51,474 nucleotides of DNA, taken from sequence record MZ501090; one strand, written 5' to 3'. Under the pieces are notes generated by a model. That model was not told where the DNA came from. It did no database searches and worked only from the letters and a program-made list of their open reading frames with translations. Shown here piece by piece: positions 28,948 to 50,782 of this stretch (positions are counted from its first letter, which is position 1; each line of letters opens with the position of its first letter). This stretch comes from Escherichia phage KarlJaspers. The position numbers and the translations under genes are program-made.

Positions 28948-29880
28948 TTAGAGAATTGATTCAGGTTTGAAAACCTTCCTCTCTATCCCTTGCCTGTAAT
29001 TATCATTAATCGGCATCATAATTTCAAGTCCTCTTTCCTCGGCAGCAATGATCGCGTCACGGTCTGTACTCTTACAGACAACTCTCATTCTTCTGTTTCC
29101 CTTATACCTGTAAGCCACAATCTCAATGTTAGTTGCATCAAAGCAGGCCCAGACCTCTTGACCAGTTGCAAGGTGGATGTGTTGCGCATCAATCCAGTCA
29201 ACGCAAAGATAGATCGTCTTATCTGTACTTCCTGTTCTCACAATCGACCCTCGCGTGTAGTCCTTTGCGAGAAAAGACTGATTGCCGTCTTCATCAATGA
29301 AAAGCACATTGCACATTTCATCATCAATCTCATCTGAGTGTACCAGGTGACACGGTAACGCGTGAATGTATCGGCCATCTTTTACGCCGCAATCATAATG
29401 ACCATCTTCAGGCGGGTATATTCCTTCATATGTGCTTAACGGCGTGCGATCAAATTTTAGTGTTTTTGACATAACGCGCTCGCAGCATTCATGGCTTGCC
29501 TGTTTCCCAAACGAATAACCAGAATCACGAGATACTCGCTTATTTGCCTTGATCCTATAGTCCTGCGGAACTTTTCCAAGAAAACGGCCCAAAATATTGA
29601 TCACTTCGCTGTAAGGTTCTCCGGTTAGCTTCATGATCCAACCAATTCCGGTATCATTACCGCACACGTTGCAGATCGCACCGCCATCGCCTTTTTTATC
29701 GCCAAGTTTATCCGTCCATCTGAAGCGATCCTTTCCGCCGCAGTGTGGGCAAGATTGATGCTTTCCGTTAAAAACTTCATTTGGAAGACCGCAAATACTT
29801 TGTAGCGCCTCACGCCACAATCCTTGCATATATGGGAGAACATCTTCCTTTTGATAAACCATAAAGTTTTCGTTATTCAT
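28948..29880 (-). CDS. DNA primase (zinc-ribbon type, putative)
   Basis: CPHCGG...CNVCG zinc-binding motif and acidic DEIDDE segment; start ambiguous (29880 with GAGGTG RBS, or 29982). Confidence 0.55.
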
Positions 29881-29935
29881 ATACACCTCAAACAAAAAAG
29901 CCTGACAGATGATAACATCATGCCAGGCATTGTTT

Positions 29936-30409
29936 TTAGCAATTAGTGCTTTCAGGTTTATACAGGAATCCGCCAGGTTCATAATCTGACATTCTTACCA
30001 CTCGCAACATTTCACGCTTATCACATCTCTTTGTGAGCGGTTTGCCATTGGAATCAAATCGCAGGTCTGGACGACAGAATGATGCGCGATAGCCTTGACA
30101 TCCATATTTTTTGTAATCGTTATGCACCTTTTGAGCGCCAGCGGCTGAAATCATACCGCGAACGCGCCACTGATTTACAGTTTGCTGGCTAACGTTAAGA
30201 CGTTTTGCCATTGCTGACACGCTTCCGTAATACTCAATAAGGATGTCAAGTCGCGCTTTTAGTCCGGCGCGCACTTCATCTTTTAAAACATAGTATCCCG
30301 TAGGGCGCTTGCGCTTCTTCTTATCCTTTCCTCTTCGAGTTCCGTTATTGCCATTAATTGTGCGCTTGTCAATCTTGCCTGTTGATACTGCGATTCGTTG
30401 CTCTTTCAT
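29936..30409 (-). CDS. HTH DNA-binding protein (putative transcription regulator)
   Basis: 157 aa; basic N-terminus; helix-turn-helix-like SVSAMAKRLNVSQQTVNQW. Confidence 0.5.
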   Translation of the reverse strand: MKEQRIAVSTGKIDKRTINGNNGTRRGKDKKKRKRPTGYYVLKDEVRAGLKARLDILIEYYGSVSAMAKRLNVSQQTVNQWRVRGMISAAGAQKVHNDYKKYGCQGYRASFCRPDLRFDSNGKPLTKRCDKREMLRVVRMSDYEPGGFLYKPESTNC

Positions 30410-30422
30410 TATTCATTCTCCA

Positions 30423-30441
30423 ATAGCATTTTTTGTTAAAC
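30423..30441 (+). promoter_or_regulatory. conserved intergenic motif copy upstream of helicase
   Basis: ATAGCATTTTTTGTTAAAC, then TATTAT about 19 nt downstream. Confidence 0.5.
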
Positions 30442-30498
30442 GATGATTTAATGATTGTGTATTATACACGCCAAATGGCATTACTCAAAGGTTTTAGA

Positions 30499-32538
30499 AT
30501 GATTCCAAACATTGAAAAGCAAATATCAACACTTGGTGAAACGGTAATTAAATCCATTCAGGAGCGATTCACTGTTGGCGAGATTGTGCCTTACCATTAC
30601 CAGTGCGTTGCATACGCTGAGATCGCAAAGCGTATGAAAAATTATGAGCATCCATTCTTTGTTAAAGCGTCCGTATCGGCTGGCAAAACATTGATGTTTG
30701 CAATGGTTGCTCACCAGTGCCGGAAAATGGGCTTGAAAATGATGGTCCTTGCTCGCCAGGCTGAGATTGTGGATCAGGATTCTGAAGAGATAACAAATCT
30801 TGGTGTGCCGAACTCCATCTATTGTGCAGGACTGAAGACAAAAAGCGCATACTTTCCGATCGTTGTTGGTTCTGAGGGAACTGTAGTTAATGGACTGTTT
30901 AAAGCGCTTGGCGACTATGTTCCGCACGTTATCGGGATTGACGAGTGTCACCAGGTGGATTGGGAAGACCTTGCCGACGCAATAGAGAAAGACGAATCAT
31001 TTTTACAAATGACAACGAAGAAAGGCGAAAAAGTACCAAATCCAGATTATGACATAACGAGCGATAACGAATGCGAAGAGTTCCTGATTGGTGAGGATGG
31101 CTTGCCAATGGAGGGAACAGGCCGCACACAATACACTGTCATTATCATGGAAATGATGCGCCGCTGCCGGAAAACATATGGTCATGAACTGCGCATATTT
31201 GGCATGACTGGATCGGAGTTTCGCGGCGTAGTCCCGATCCTGGTAGAAGACAAAAAACAGAAAGGATTCTGGCGTGAACAGGTTACTAATATTGACACCA
31301 ACTACCTGATCAAATTCGGTTCTGTTGTGCCAACAAATTTTGGCGACGTTGGCGATCTAGGGTATGACCTTTCAGAGTTTGAGGCATCCAGTGAGGATGG
31401 AGTTGCAGACTTTGACGCTAAAACGCTTCGCAGGATGGAACAAAAAATTCATGAAGAAGCGACCATGACAAAGCGCATCATGGCGAAAGTTCACGAGATC
31501 TGTAAAAACCGCAACGGCGTACTTGTGACATGTGCAGGAGAAAGGCATTGCAAAGAGGCAGCGGCAGCGTTGCCACCTGGAACTACTTACAGGATCATTA
31601 CTGGTAAGACTGGCGACAATCAGCGCAAGGAGTGGTTGAGGGAAGCATACGAAGGGAAGGTAAAATACATCTTCCAGGTTCAGGCGCTAACTACTGGCGT
31701 TAACGTGCCGTTTTGGGATACGTCTGTTATTCTGCGTAAGATTGGATCGCTAACTTTGCTGATTCAGCTTTTAGGACGCGGAATGCGACTTCTTAAGAAA
31801 TGGCATAAGGAACAAGGCTTCAAGAAAGATGATCACCTGGTTATGGATTTTTCAGGAACGATGGACGAGTTAGGTGAGCTTTATTTTGATCCGATACTGG
31901 AACAGGCGCAACATCAGAAGCGATTCAGGAACGGTAAAGATCCGAAGCCTTGTCCTGTTTGCGGAACTCTTAATAGCTATTATGCTCGTCGTTGTATGCA
32001 CGTAGACGAAAACGGCAACAGATGCGAGTGGTTCTTTAAATTCAGGACATGTGATGATCAGATTGACCCGCGCACTAAAAAGATTATTCAGCGCGGTTGT
32101 GGAACGAAAAATGATATTGCGGCCAGGGTATGCAGACATTGCGACATGTCATTGATTGACCCTAACGAGAAGTTAAGCGGAAAGCACTACACAAAAAACG
32201 ACTGGTTTCAGGTGCAATCTTTCTCGGTTGACATGACGAAAAACCAGAAAGGGATAATATTTAATTATGAGCTTTCCGATGGCATAGATACTTTCAGGGC
32301 GAGAGAGATATTTTTCCCTGAATCTGAGAGCCAAATTTGCCGCGCAAAATGGCGAAGCGTTGCTCTTAAGCACATACCAGATCGCCGTGTTGCTGGCATG
32401 GTGGCGAGCTATCGTAATGCACGAAAAATAATGCAATATGTTAATCACATTATGCCGCCATCGCGTGTTACTCACAGAAAGACTAGCAATGGCGAAGATA
32501 ATTTATACAAGAAGGACTTTAATTATGGCAATGACTGA
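30499..32538 (+). CDS. ATP-dependent DNA helicase (SF2, DEAH-like)
   Basis: Walker A SAGKT, IGIDECHQ motif II, C-terminal Cys4 zinc ribbon; start 30499 chosen because motif overlaps track start 30433. Confidence 0.75.
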   Translation: MIPNIEKQISTLGETVIKSIQERFTVGEIVPYHYQCVAYAEIAKRMKNYEHPFFVKASVSAGKTLMFAMVAHQCRKMGLKMMVLARQAEIVDQDSEEITNLGVPNSIYCAGLKTKSAYFPIVVGSEGTVVNGLFKALGDYVPHVIGIDECHQVDWEDLADAIEKDESFLQMTTKKGEKVPNPDYDITSDNECEEFLIGEDGLPMEGTGRTQYTVIIMEMMRRCRKTYGHELRIFGMTGSEFRGVVPILVEDKKQKGFWREQVTNIDTNYLIKFGSVVPTNFGDVGDLGYDLSEFEASSEDGVADFDAKTLRRMEQKIHEEATMTKRIMAKVHEICKNRNGVLVTCAGERHCKEAAAALPPGTTYRIITGKTGDNQRKEWLREAYEGKVKYIFQVQALTTGVNVPFWDTSVILRKIGSLTLLIQLLGRGMRLLKKWHKEQGFKKDDHLVMDFSGTMDELGELYFDPILEQAQHQKRFRNGKDPKPCPVCGTLNSYYARRCMHVDENGNRCEWFFKFRTCDDQIDPRTKKIIQRGCGTKNDIAARVCRHCDMSLIDPNEKLSGKHYTKNDWFQVQSFSVDMTKNQKGIIFNYELSDGIDTFRAREIFFPESESQICRAKWRSVALKHIPDRRVAGMVASYRNARKIMQYVNHIMPPSRVTHRKTSNGEDNLYKKDFNYGND

Positions 32539-33985: not shown

Positions 33986-34001
33986 CACTTTTTGTTAAAA
34001 C
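33982..34001 (+). promoter_or_regulatory. conserved intergenic motif copy
   Basis: ATAGCACTTTTTGTTAAAAC overlapping stop TAG; GCCCGAC-cttgt-GTCGGGC hairpin then ATAATT. Confidence 0.6.
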
Positions 34002-34057
34002 GCCCGACCTTGTGTCGGGCATAATTATTTCATCAAAACGAACAAGAGGAAAACAAA

Positions 34058-44220: not shown

Positions 44221-44236
44221 CACTTTTTGTTAAAAC
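44217..44236 (+). promoter_or_regulatory. conserved intergenic motif copy
   Basis: ATAGCACTTTTTGTTAAAAC overlapping stop; GCCAGG-tgcaaat-CCTGGC hairpin then ATAATA. Confidence 0.6.
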
Positions 44237-45668: not shown

Positions 45669-45688
45669 ATAGCACGAATTGTTAAAAC
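45669..45688 (+). promoter_or_regulatory. conserved intergenic motif copy (GAATT variant)
   Basis: ATAGCACGAATTGTTAAAAC; GGCC...TATAAT...GGCC downstream. Confidence 0.55.
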
Positions 45689-45741
45689 TCAAATGTGGGG
45701 CCAGGTATAATGGCCTCACTTTCAACGAAGGAGATAAAACG

Positions 45742-46499: not shown

Positions 46500-46657
46500 C
46501 CTGGATTCTATTTGTGATTATCACAAGCTACAATTCAGCCGCCATTGAGTCTCGCGAGTTCCACGGTGAATCAAGATGTCAGGCCGCGAGAGAGCAAGTA
46601 ATTTTGCATATGTCAGATAACGATAAAGAAGTTGAAGTATTCTGCATTCGTAAATAG
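46496..46657 (+). CDS. hypothetical small protein (53 aa)
   Basis: ORF below track cutoff; hydrophobic N-terminus WILFVIITSY; stop TAG inside motif copy. Confidence 0.3.
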   Translation: MTWILFVIITSYNSAAIESREFHGESRCQAAREQVILHMSDNDKEVEVFCIRK

Positions 46658-46673
46658 CACTTTTTGCAAAAAC
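46654..46673 (+). promoter_or_regulatory. conserved intergenic motif copy (variant)
   Basis: ATAGCACTTTTTGCAAAAAC; GGGCTT...AAGCCC hairpin enclosing TATAGT downstream. Confidence 0.55.
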
Positions 46674-46728
46674 AGATTGTCGGGCTTGCGGTATAGTAAG
46701 CCCATCGACAACAAACGAGGATTAAATC

Positions 46729-46992
46729 ATGGTTAATAAAGTTGAGTTTTTCAAAGCGGTAGACAAGATTGACGGCGCGCCAAGTTTCTTTGCTATCCAT
46801 TCCATTGACGGCGAAGACGTTGAATACAACGTGATTAGTCGAGACGGTATATCAAAACTTAGTGACCTGGTGGGTTATATTGTGGCGAACGGGAAATGTG
46901 CATGGCCCGATTCACCACGAGAGCCGCGCCGCCGCGACATGCAAAATCCAGTTCTGCTTTACACGCTGGTAATTGAAGTAGTCAACAAATGA
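46729..46992 (+). CDS. hypothetical protein
   Basis: 87 aa with GAGGA RBS. Confidence 0.4.
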   Translation: MVNKVEFFKAVDKIDGAPSFFAIHSIDGEDVEYNVISRDGISKLSDLVGYIVANGKCAWPDSPREPRRRDMQNPVLLYTLVIEVVNK

Positions 46993-47174
46993 TTTGGTTA
47001 CTTGTATTTTTAGTAGTTTTCTTTTATATTTCAGGCTTATTCATCTTCCGCGCATTGGTTAAAGAGTGTGATTGCACTGATAAAGATCAGCCTCTTGTTC
47101 TGATGTTCTGGTTTGTGTGGTTTTGGGTGGCGCTTTACCAGATTGTACGGGATGAAAGCGGTTTTAAGTGGTGA
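46989..47174 (+). CDS. small membrane protein (two predicted TM helices)
   Basis: 61 aa; LLVFLVVFFYISGLFIF and LVLMFWFVWFWVALY hydrophobic stretches. Confidence 0.4.
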   Translation: MIWLLVFLVVFFYISGLFIFRALVKECDCTDKDQPLVLMFWFVWFWVALYQIVRDESGFKW

Positions 47175-47229
47175 TTCTTACTATAGCGCATTCACGCAGT
47201 GCGCTATGTTGAGATAACAACAGGAGTTC

Positions 47230-47367
47230 ATGAAGATGCGAAACTTCGAAAAAATCGTAACCAAGAAAAAGCGCTACAGCTACGACGAGCACCGCGAGAT
47301 GAATCAACGCTATCGCAAGAAGCGCCAGCGCACAGGTAAACATTCAAGCAGATATGGAGAAAACTAA
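47230..47367 (+). CDS. hypothetical small basic protein (45 aa)
   Basis: CAGGAG RBS; Lys/Arg-rich; stop adjoins kinase start; not in ORF track. Confidence 0.3.
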   Translation: MKMRNFEKIVTKKKRYSYDEHREMNQRYRKKRQRTGKHSSRYGEN

Positions 47368-47368
47368 T

Positions 47369-47959
47369 ATGAAGCGAGACATTATCATCCTTAACGGACC
47401 GCCAGGAGTTGGCAAGGATACGCTTGCGGCATACTTAACTGGCCATCGTTACGCAGCCGTTAAAGCGTCGTTTAAGCAACCGATGTTTGATATTGCATTC
47501 TCCATGCTTGGCGTTTACCTATATGACGAGTTCATTGATCTGTATAACGACCGCGAGCAGAAAGAAAAGCCTCAAGCAATCTTGCAAGGCAATTCGCCTC
47601 GCAAGTTCATGATCTGGATTAGCGAAGAAGTCATGAAGCCAGCTTTTGGCGAGCAATATTTCGGAAATCGCATGGTTGAGCAAGTACACGAGATGTACAG
47701 AGATTTGGCTGTTGTAATTAGTGATGGCGGATTCCCTGAAGAAATCAAGCCGCTCGTTAAGGCAGGCCATGAAGTTCACATTTGCCGACTGCATCGCGAA
47801 GGATTCACGTTTGATGGCGATTCGCGAAACTATATTGACCTGAGCGGATACCATCACCGAGTCAAGCATTACGACTTCACAATGATTGATGGCGAGCCAG
47901 AAAAGACTGTTGACGAGATCATCAAAACGGTGCAGTGGAAACACACAAAGATTGAATAG
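47369..47959 (+). CDS. P-loop nucleotide kinase (dNMP kinase-like, putative)
   Basis: Walker A GPPGVGKDT near N-terminus; ATG 47369 preferred over 47354 (GGAG 9 nt upstream). Confidence 0.5.
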   Translation: MKRDIIILNGPPGVGKDTLAAYLTGHRYAAVKASFKQPMFDIAFSMLGVYLYDEFIDLYNDREQKEKPQAILQGNSPRKFMIWISEEVMKPAFGEQYFGNRMVEQVHEMYRDLAVVISDGGFPEEIKPLVKAGHEVHICRLHREGFTFDGDSRNYIDLSGYHHRVKHYDFTMIDGEPEKTVDEIIKTVQWKHTKIE

Positions 47960-47975
47960 CACGAATTGCTAAAAG
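47956..47975 (+). promoter_or_regulatory. conserved intergenic motif copy (GAATT variant)
   Basis: ATAGCACGAATTGCTAAAAG overlapping stop TAG; TATAAT downstream. Confidence 0.5.
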
Positions 47976-48029
47976 CGGGGCACAATGCCTCGCTATAATA
48001 CAAACACCAATCAACGAGAGGAAATCATC

Positions 48030-48431
48030 ATGGTAGAGTTAAACGACATTCGCGTTGGGACAAAATTTCGCGTAACCTGGGCAGATAAATATTGCGGAGT
48101 TAGCAAGGGCCAGATTGTTACTGTGGATAGTATTTATCGCGGATGCAGCAAAGACTTTCGGCGCCCACGCATCAAGAATGGCTATATCATTACTCGCCGT
48201 TTTGGGTTTGATCATTATTGCGTAGTGTCAACTCAAGGCGCTTTGATTGAGCTTAAGCGAATAAGCGATCATCGCGGCTGTCATGTTAAGACAATGAAAA
48301 CACCATTTCAGCGAGCGCGATACGATGCGCGACGGATGCGCCGACTTGCTCGAAATGCGATCAAGTTCAAAAAGCCTGGCAGTAATTTTTACAGAATGTA
48401 CAAAGGGATTGCGCGAAATGCTGGGAAATAA
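48030..48431 (+). CDS. hypothetical protein
   Basis: ATG 48030 with GAGAGGAAA RBS; basic C-terminus. Confidence 0.4.
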   Translation: MVELNDIRVGTKFRVTWADKYCGVSKGQIVTVDSIYRGCSKDFRRPRIKNGYIITRRFGFDHYCVVSTQGALIELKRISDHRGCHVKTMKTPFQRARYDARRMRRLARNAIKFKKPGSNFYRMYKGIARNAGK

Positions 48432-48970: not shown

Positions 48971-49013
48971 TGTTAACCGCGCCGCTTCGGTGGCGCTAAA
49001 AGGAGGAAACAAA

Positions 49014-49301: not shown

Positions 49302-49320
49302 TAGCACTTTTTGTTAAAAC
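49301..49320 (+). promoter_or_regulatory. conserved intergenic motif copy
   Basis: ATAGCACTTTTTGTTAAAAC overlapping stop TAA. Confidence 0.55.
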
Positions 49321-49376
49321 TTCCGCGAGGGCATTTGTTAAAGTGTCCTCATTGAAGCGAAACAGAGTAAATCAAA

Positions 49377-50205: not shown

Positions 50206-50215
50206 TTAAAATTGA

Positions 50216-50260
50216 ATGCCTCATACAGCGAACAGGACGCATTTTGACGAGGCATTTTTT
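50216..50260 (+). terminator. terminator-like hairpin
   Basis: ATGCCTC...GAGGCAT stem with long loop followed by TTTTTT. Confidence 0.45.
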
Positions 50261-50275
50261 AGGTAAGGTGATTCA

Positions 50276-50634: not shown

Positions 50635-50663
50635 TTGACAACGATTTCCTGATTGGTTAGCAT
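50635..50663 (+). promoter_or_regulatory. sigma70-like promoter
   Basis: TTGACA - 17 nt - TAGCAT. Confidence 0.5.
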
Positions 50664-50669
50664 ATTCAA

Positions 50670-50770
50670 CGTTTACATAAGAGCGGCATTAGTGCCGAAC
50701 GGGTGGCGCGGTTGCCACGCAACAACGGCGATATGCAGGTTTTTACCGTAAGACGTATCGCCTTTTTTTT
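50670..50770 (+). ncRNA. candidate small RNA or leader/attenuator (three hairpins ending in terminator)
   Basis: Downstream of promoter: CGGCA...TGCCG, GTGGC...GCCAC, GGCGATA...TATCGCC + TTTTTTTT; no ORF. Confidence 0.3.
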
Positions 50771-50782
50771 ATAGGTGAATAT

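Follow-up and report, generated by a model that had tools for sequence, protein, structure and literature searches.

A conserved RNA stem-loop occupies the gap between a small membrane-protein gene and a small basic open reading frame (ORF) in the early region of Escherichia phage KarlJaspers (record MZ501090; the whole stretch of 51,474 nt that was analysed is hereafter called the window). The hairpin spans positions 47176-47214 on the plus strand. It is an unannotated conserved cis-element that is absent from Rfam, none of whose covariance models overlapped it even at E-values of up to 10. Most likely, it adjusts how stable the message that carries it is, or how that message is processed or translated, and is in that sense an element of an ordinary kind. 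We place it at the level of the mRNA because the structure is strand-asymmetric, the substitutions found in relatives preserve its pairs and it lies inside a polycistronic unit. Among the specific roles, we favour that of an intercistronic determinant of mRNA stability or processing, a tentative assignment that we hold at just under an even chance and that we infer from the anatomy of the site alone.

At the centre of the structure is a perfect 7-bp palindrome, TAGCGCA-ttcacgcag-TGCGCTA, with its 5' arm at 47184-47190 and its 3' arm at 47200-47206 (both on the plus strand, by direct reading and exact pattern match). An earlier note on this DNA had the sequence right but placed it at 47191-47217, an interval that begins inside the loop and overshoots the 3' arm by 11 nt, a shift of about 7 nt. 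It correctly located the palindrome between the membrane ORF, whose TGA stop codon lies at 47172-47174, and the small basic ORF (47230/47236-47367). The 7-bp stem that it described is the core of a larger structure, an RNA stem of 16 bp that it under-described. A perfect 7-bp stem is not evidence by itself, because 64 inverted repeats of this kind, perfect over 7 bp and with loops of 3-12 nt, occur in the window, compared to 44 ± 8 after Markov-1 resampling. The 1.6 kb around the palindrome has seven perfect ones of 7 bp when spacers of up to 40 nt are allowed.

Folded as RNA, the plus strand pairs 47176-47180 with 47210-47214 and, beyond a 1x1 C.U internal loop, 47182-47192 with 47198-47208. 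The apical loop is the 5-nt CACGC (47193-47197, plus strand), which reads CATGC or AATGC in relatives, positions 47193 and 47194 being variable. The stem, therefore, comprises 5 bp plus 11 bp, or 16 pairs, three of which are G.U. The minimum free energy and centroid folds both have an energy of -18.4 kcal/mol, with a z-score of -4.2 relative to dinucleotide shuffles. Hairpins as stable as this are not rare in the window: 22 out of 10,286 sampled 47-nt windows of the plus strand were equally or more stable, which places the element in the top 0.2%. An RNAalifold consensus of 12 sequences from relatives independently recovered the same helix and extended it by two outer pairs, G47171-C47218 and U47172-A47217. 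These pairs are invariant and involve the first base of the stop codon. The maximal helix (47171-47218, plus strand) has about 18 bp over some 22 stacked positions, interrupted by 1x1 and 3x2 internal loops. The RNA of the minus strand keeps an 8-bp core alone, and folds computed with DNA parameters are weak on both strands (z about -2). In these models, the structure is stable on the mRNA strand as RNA only, with three G.U pairs lengthening its stem.

Around the hairpin, the sequence shares 96% identity with Escherichia phage egaa (Drexlerviridae, Tempevirinae, Hanrivervirus), and 121 phage records were matched. The window is therefore an essentially complete T1-like, Hanrivervirus-like Drexlerviridae genome. 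Copies of the junction were gathered from INPHARED records, from IMG/VR and through a pattern search of metagenomes and IMG/VR that was anchored on the flanks and left the hairpin sequence free; about 36 of the 47 metagenome matches of this last search were chance fits to its degenerate pattern. A protein-anchored search of IMG/VR contributed 10 loci, and tblastn searches with both flanking ORFs against INPHARED were used to find further hairpin diversity. The conservation in relatives that had been proposed as a check on the palindrome was found: the hairpin is present in all Hanrivervirus and Warwickvirus copies examined, with the exception of one deletion variant. None was found beyond these two genera in INPHARED, IMG/VR or the metagenomes, and just two haplotype classes carry it.

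Hanrivervirus and Warwickvirus agree at 35 out of 39 positions of the element (90%), compared to 62-70% for the end of the upstream coding sequence and 52% for the downstream spacer (binomial p of about 0.003). Across about 25 copies, the variable sites of the hairpin were the pair 47185/47205, position 47180, loop positions 47193 and 47194, and position 47208. Sites 47185 and 47205 are strictly linked and differ between the genera by a compensatory swap from A-U to G-C. The change at 47180 converts A-U into G.U and is also polymorphic within Hanrivervirus, a wobble pair adjoining the internal loop is lost at 47208 in some copies, and the two loop sites differ among otherwise near-identical phages. 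In total, 99.4% of the stem cells in these copies were paired and no Watson-Crick pair was broken, whereas sliding the 3' partner by 1-3 columns as a control lowered the pairing to 28-56%. The covariation amounts to one compensatory event, fixed between two genera, and 13 of the 16 pairs are invariant. This conservation argues for a present function of the hairpin. It also exceeds what pairing alone would need, which could mean that a sequence-specific ligand is involved.

The deletion variant is Shigella phage 2019SD1 (locus L009 of our set, IMGVR_UViG_2974632794_000001), in which a deletion of about 60 nt (at about 1349-1420) takes the 3' arm of the hairpin and, from the basic ORF, its first third. 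In the same phage, the dNMP kinase gene downstream is shortened by another deletion and matches residues 45-201 only. If this assembly is correct, the hairpin and the basic-ORF/kinase module would both be dispensable.

The hairpin lies within a block of small plus-strand genes that covers about 43.4-51.4 kb and precedes the terminase genes. Immediately before it is a 61-aa membrane ORF with two hydrophobic segments (46989-47174, plus strand), which is present in the ORF list, matches phrog_9755 (2.4e-28) and is a CDS in relatives; the stem begins 2 nt past the stop codon of this ORF. On the other side, the Shine-Dalgarno sequence of the basic ORF, AGGAG (47222-47226, plus strand), comes 7 nt after the stem, and both this sequence and the AUG are free in the predicted fold. 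Warwickvirus has GGGGG at the equivalent site. The basic ORF itself (47236-47367, plus strand) encodes a highly basic product of 43 aa, beginning MRNFEKI, from a conserved ATG at 47236, with an in-frame alternative ATG at 47230. Its match to phrog_8176 is weak, and its stop codon lies 2 nt ahead of the start of a dNMP kinase gene.

Although unannotated in several close relatives, such as egaa and PGN590, the basic ORF (MRNFEKI..KKR.R..KHS.RYGE) has homologues with 55-60% identity in Warwickvirus and in Klebsiella Drexlerviridae. It lies beside the dNMP kinase gene in all the genomes examined, directly upstream of it in Hanrivervirus, some Warwickvirus and Klebsiella phages, and with one small ORF in between in other Warwickvirus. 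By this comparison, it is a real small gene that is linked to the kinase. The kinase gene (47370-47959, plus strand; phrog_139, 5.8e-50) has been assigned its start from relatives: its longest ORF begins at 47354, and the corresponding egaa gp70 is 591 nt long and starts ATGAAACGAGAC.

The ORF that precedes the membrane ORF, orf87, overlaps it (orf61) by 4 nt, and the gap between the basic ORF and the kinase gene is 2 nt; a polycistronic message is, therefore, implied. The nearest upstream promoter module, identified by motif search and register analysis (46653-46697, plus strand), consists of the repeat AATAGCACTTTTTGCAAAAAC at 46653-46673 and a -10 hexamer, TATAGT, at 46692-46697. It is a putative promoter that presumably drives the transcript bearing the hairpin. 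According to the register analysis, the next module downstream (47955-47999, plus strand) has its repeat at 47955-47975 and a -10 hexamer, TATAAT, at 47994-47999. The hairpin would sit inside a presumed unit that runs from the module at 46653-46697 through orf87, orf61, the hairpin, the basic ORF and the kinase gene and ends at the module at 47955-47999, and this region appears to be co-transcribed as one unit. In the longest ORF that follows, 47985-48431, the ATG at 47985 falls inside the downstream promoter module. Both the conserved leader and relatives, such as egaa with its gp69 of 133 aa, indicate that an ATG near 48030 is probably the true start of this ORF.

The earlier note's view that a terminator is unlikely agrees with both the structure and the gene order. 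No T-run follows the palindrome, either in the sequence or in the terminator scan. The GC-rich stem of an intrinsic terminator is present (16 bp with a GCGC core), but the U-tract is absent: the full stem is followed by UAACAACA and the upper stem by GUUGAGAU, neither of which has the roughly five or more U in 8 nt that define a U-tract. Nor does the site mark the end of a unit, the next two genes having no promoter of their own before the module at 47955-47999. The hairpin site was not listed by the terminator and promoter scan, which found no -35/-10 pair of a sigma-70 promoter there. Two candidate -10 hexamers were rejected: TATAGC (TATGGC in Warwickvirus) lacks the invariant final T, and TATGTT (47205-47210) is unsupported by a -35 element, a TGn or a repeat.

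The promoter modules against which the hairpin has to be compared are numerous. The 21-nt repeat [A/G]ATAGCACTTTTTGTTAAAAC occurs at least 18 times in the window (17-nt core, up to 3 mismatches), compared to 1.2 expected. Located by core search and given as the position of the C of CAC, nine are on the plus strand (30427, 32945, 33986, 44221, 44684, 45673, 46658, 47960 and 49305) and nine on the minus strand (6357, 10118, 20884, 29948, 37242, 39410, 40086, 41953 and 42830). The repeat is known in T1-like phages, and the TLS re-annotation paper calls its function an open question (PMC11447400). In the window, it always comes directly after a stop codon and stands in a fixed register to a -10 hexamer at motif positions 35-40 (CATAAT, TATAGT or TATAAT), usually with TGn or GGn before it and the conserved leader CATCGAAACGAG..GAGG..ATG after it. 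There is no -35 element at 17 bp, and the TTG of the repeat lies 22 bp upstream of the -10. In its sequence, the module looks like an UP-like element combined with an extended -10 promoter.

Thirteen of the 18 modules contain a stable inverted repeat (z below -2) that either occupies the spacer or flanks the -10 hexamer on both sides, so that the hexamer lies in or beside the loop (e.g. 46682-46703, 45681-45705, 49313-49336, 33988-34006 and 47975-47993). The orthologues of these module hairpins in other genera, examined in relatives L006, L013, L020, L021 and L083, pair despite their changed sequence. By eye, pairing is kept in the series GAGGGC..GTCCTC, AAGGGC..GCCCTT, AAGGCC..GGCCTT and AAGGCACA..TGTGCCTT, as well as in GGGCTT..AAGCCC and GGCCT..AGGCC. 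A hairpin around the -10 hexamer is unusual for sigma-70 promoters. This context is more useful than the intercistronic hairpin itself, which sits where related genera have the repeat; in the window, the repeat keeps a fixed register to the -10 and is usually accompanied by a covarying hairpin around it.

Such modules are strung along the early region, at 44221, 44684, 45673, 46658, 47960 and 49305, and the gap studied here is among the few without one. A weight matrix was built from the 18 repeat-type promoter modules of the window. Around the hairpin (47140-47235), the best match to the repeat scored -8.4, whereas each of the 18 real copies reached at least 20.8, and of the repeat only an ATAGCGC box is present; the full module scored -20, compared to at least 27.9, and the score for the leader CATCGAAACGAG was unremarkable. 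The palindrome had been called isolated, and it is unique in the window, but a second hairpin that lacks a T-run occupies another early gap, and most of the other early gaps have hairpins within promoter modules. This second hairpin, GCGCCGC-TTCG-GTGGCGC (48979-48996), has a UUCG tetraloop and one G.U pair; a stop codon (48970) comes before it, and just after it comes the Shine-Dalgarno sequence of the next gene, AAAAGGAGG. Its stem does not vary among the Hanrivervirus loci examined, and its loop is TCAG in one phage. Two more early gaps stand apart from the others: the gap at 50206-50275 has a hairpin and T-run that resemble a terminator (AATGCCTC..GAGGCATTTTTT), and the 148-nt gap at 50635-50782 contains a classical promoter-like site, TTGACA-17-TAGCAT, and folds strongly (-41 kcal/mol).

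Under the explanation that we favour, the stem-loop would form in a polycistronic early mRNA, presumably one made from the module at 46653-46697, and would split two closely spaced and probably coupled gene pairs, orf87/orf61 on one side and the basic ORF and the kinase gene on the other. It may block 3'-to-5' exonucleases and shield the upstream segment, and/or be a cleavage site for a double-strand-specific (RNase III-type) enzyme that sets the end of the basic-ORF/kinase segment. By either route, the two halves of the operon could accumulate at different levels. In the literature on T1-like phages that we searched, we found no transcript maps and no transcript-end or cleavage data. The earlier note had proposed an RNA processing site as one of two possible roles; reading the hairpin at the level of the RNA fits the evidence, and processing in particular is something that we infer.

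The same position in the message could serve translation, a possible though unlikely alternative in each of its forms taken together. Once folded, the hairpin places the membrane-ORF stop codon and the Shine-Dalgarno sequence of the basic ORF no more than about 8 nt apart, which may promote coupling through termination and reinitiation, or prevent coupling by blocking scanning ribosomes; otherwise, as a 5' structure beside a ribosome-binding site, the hairpin may determine how fast the basic ORF and the kinase are translated. The succession of stop codon, 2 nt, stem, 7 nt and Shine-Dalgarno sequence is kept in both genera despite differing spacer sequences, the Shine-Dalgarno sequence and the AUG are unpaired in the fold, and a terminating ribosome would have to melt the 5' arm, given the size of its footprint. 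Hairpins that bridge translational signals are found in T4 genes 25 and 38. However, basic-ORF homologues are found in relatives without the hairpin, with a promoter module upstream in Klebsiella phage K50 and an 8-nt gap in P-K7R, so the hairpin is not required for translating this ORF. The Klebsiella phages that have the ORF without the hairpin also led us to reject an obligatory pair of basic peptide and hairpin, as in N/boxB-like autoregulation. A lambda-type nut/boxB site with an N-like peptide was rejected as well, with a stem of 16 bp compared to about 5 and with variable loop positions, as was recoding of the stop codon (a bacterial SECIS or readthrough element): an in-frame TAG lies 4 codons past the UGA, and the length of the extension differs in Warwickvirus.

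A rather unlikely explanation is that the hairpin was once half of a T1-like promoter module, since remodelled or decayed and left at a gene-exchange junction, and that it is perhaps a weak promoter through TATGTT (47205-47210). Relatives suggest such a history: a module of repeat, hairpin and -10 comes directly after the stop codon of the Tlsvirus homologue of the membrane ORF, and the homologous basic ORF of phage K50 has its module upstream. The 5' arm CTATAGCGC (TTGCTATAGC in some Hanriverviruses) is like an ATAGCAC box and also like the extended -10 of K50, TTGCTATAGT. Moreover, GCGCTATGTT is in the top 0.1% for the weight matrix of the module -10 region, which is about a 1-in-10 event for a region of this size. 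Degraded half-PeSLs (promoter-early stem-loops) at indel junctions have been documented in T4-like phages (PMC4122927). Against such a decay, the matrix scores indicate that the repeat is absent, the loop has no -10, the leader is missing, and the candidate -10 hexamers lack the final T or the supporting elements. A relic, moreover, would not keep 90% identity amid flanks of 52-70%, nor would it show a compensatory change.

That the hairpin has no function of its own is decidedly unlikely. It could have arisen by chance and been kept because divergence is low or through hitch-hiking, or it could be a structure of plus-strand single-stranded DNA that serves replication or recombination. Its restriction to two genera, the single compensatory event, the chance occurrence of similar free energies elsewhere in the window and the deletion in 2019SD1 would all be compatible with this. 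However, the neighbouring spacer and coding sequences have diverged far more (52-70%) over the same distance, the substitutions spare Watson-Crick pairs, and the DNA fold is weak (-7.7 kcal/mol, z -2.1).

We also consider it quite improbable that the hairpin descends from the T1-like repeat/hairpin promoter module in a remodelled but working form, is recognised as a structure, and governs how strongly the membrane-protein half of an early operon is expressed relative to its kinase half. Its recogniser would be a host or phage factor, such as RNase III or a structure-specific protein, acting on the RNA hairpin or on extruded DNA. If this were true, the hairpins that overlap the -10 hexamers of the 21-nt repeat modules would share the same structure-based regulatory system.

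The other role proposed in the earlier note, a DNA operator for a dimeric phage or host DNA-binding protein such as the helix-turn-helix (HTH) protein encoded at 29936-30409, is highly improbable despite the perfect 7-bp dyad and a sequence conserved beyond the strict need of pairing: the palindrome is a single copy, with no related palindrome within 3 mismatches in the window, none near any promoter and nothing similar in the surroundings of the HTH gene (29860-30520); the half-sites TAGCGCA and TGCGCTA are present, but TAGCGCA occurs at chance frequency (8 observed compared to 8.0 expected), no promoter overlaps or adjoins them, and their centres are 16 bp apart, which is 1.5 turns and opposite faces of the helix; and the G.U extension of the stem is meaningless in duplex DNA. 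The two arms changed together between the genera (47185/47205), altering a putative recognition base, and because this change is complementary, it is pairing rather than half-site identity that has been preserved.

The hairpin adds one conserved cis-element to the early region of Hanrivervirus and Warwickvirus, where regulation is almost unstudied. It matters little on its own, and it offers a simple target for mutational studies of mRNA processing and stability.

Several known systems resemble the hairpin in part. Like the T1-like 21-nt repeat modules (aaATAGCACnnnTTGnTAAAA; PMC11447400), it follows a stop codon and precedes a Shine-Dalgarno sequence; relatives carry a module at the homologous junction, and the modules also hold stable hairpins. 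Unlike them, it has no repeat, no -10 in its loop and no conserved leader. The PeSLs of T4-like phages are likewise stem-loops at places where the content of neighbouring genes varies, and half-elements that keep just the stem-loop have been described (PMC4122927). The phage family, the sequence and the arrangement differ, however, and the hairpin studied here is well conserved rather than decaying. Going by the relatives, it sits where gene modules have been exchanged, and it might descend from a repeat module, as degraded PeSLs do.

Nearer to the favoured role, the RNase III substrates of Escherichia coli typically have two helical turns (about 20-22 bp), often interrupted by internal loops (PMC1540722). 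The helix of the phage hairpin is also broken by small internal loops and reaches about 22 stacked positions with its outer pairs, whereas its 16 pairs (18 in total) fall short of the roughly 22 bp of classic substrates. As with the early RNase III sites of T7 (R1.1) and the lambda N leader, the hairpin lies between genes of a polycistronic early mRNA of a phage; unlike the T7 early sites, it is single and not one of a series between every gene. Intercistronic stem-loops that confer segmental stability are exemplified by the REP hairpins of malE-malF in E. coli and by the hairpins of the Rhodobacter puf operon. The phage hairpin differs from these in that it is phage-encoded, is not a REP and is not repeated in the genome, and it resembles them in being a stable hairpin without a U-tract that lies between cistrons, right after a stop codon, with neither a promoter nor a terminator.
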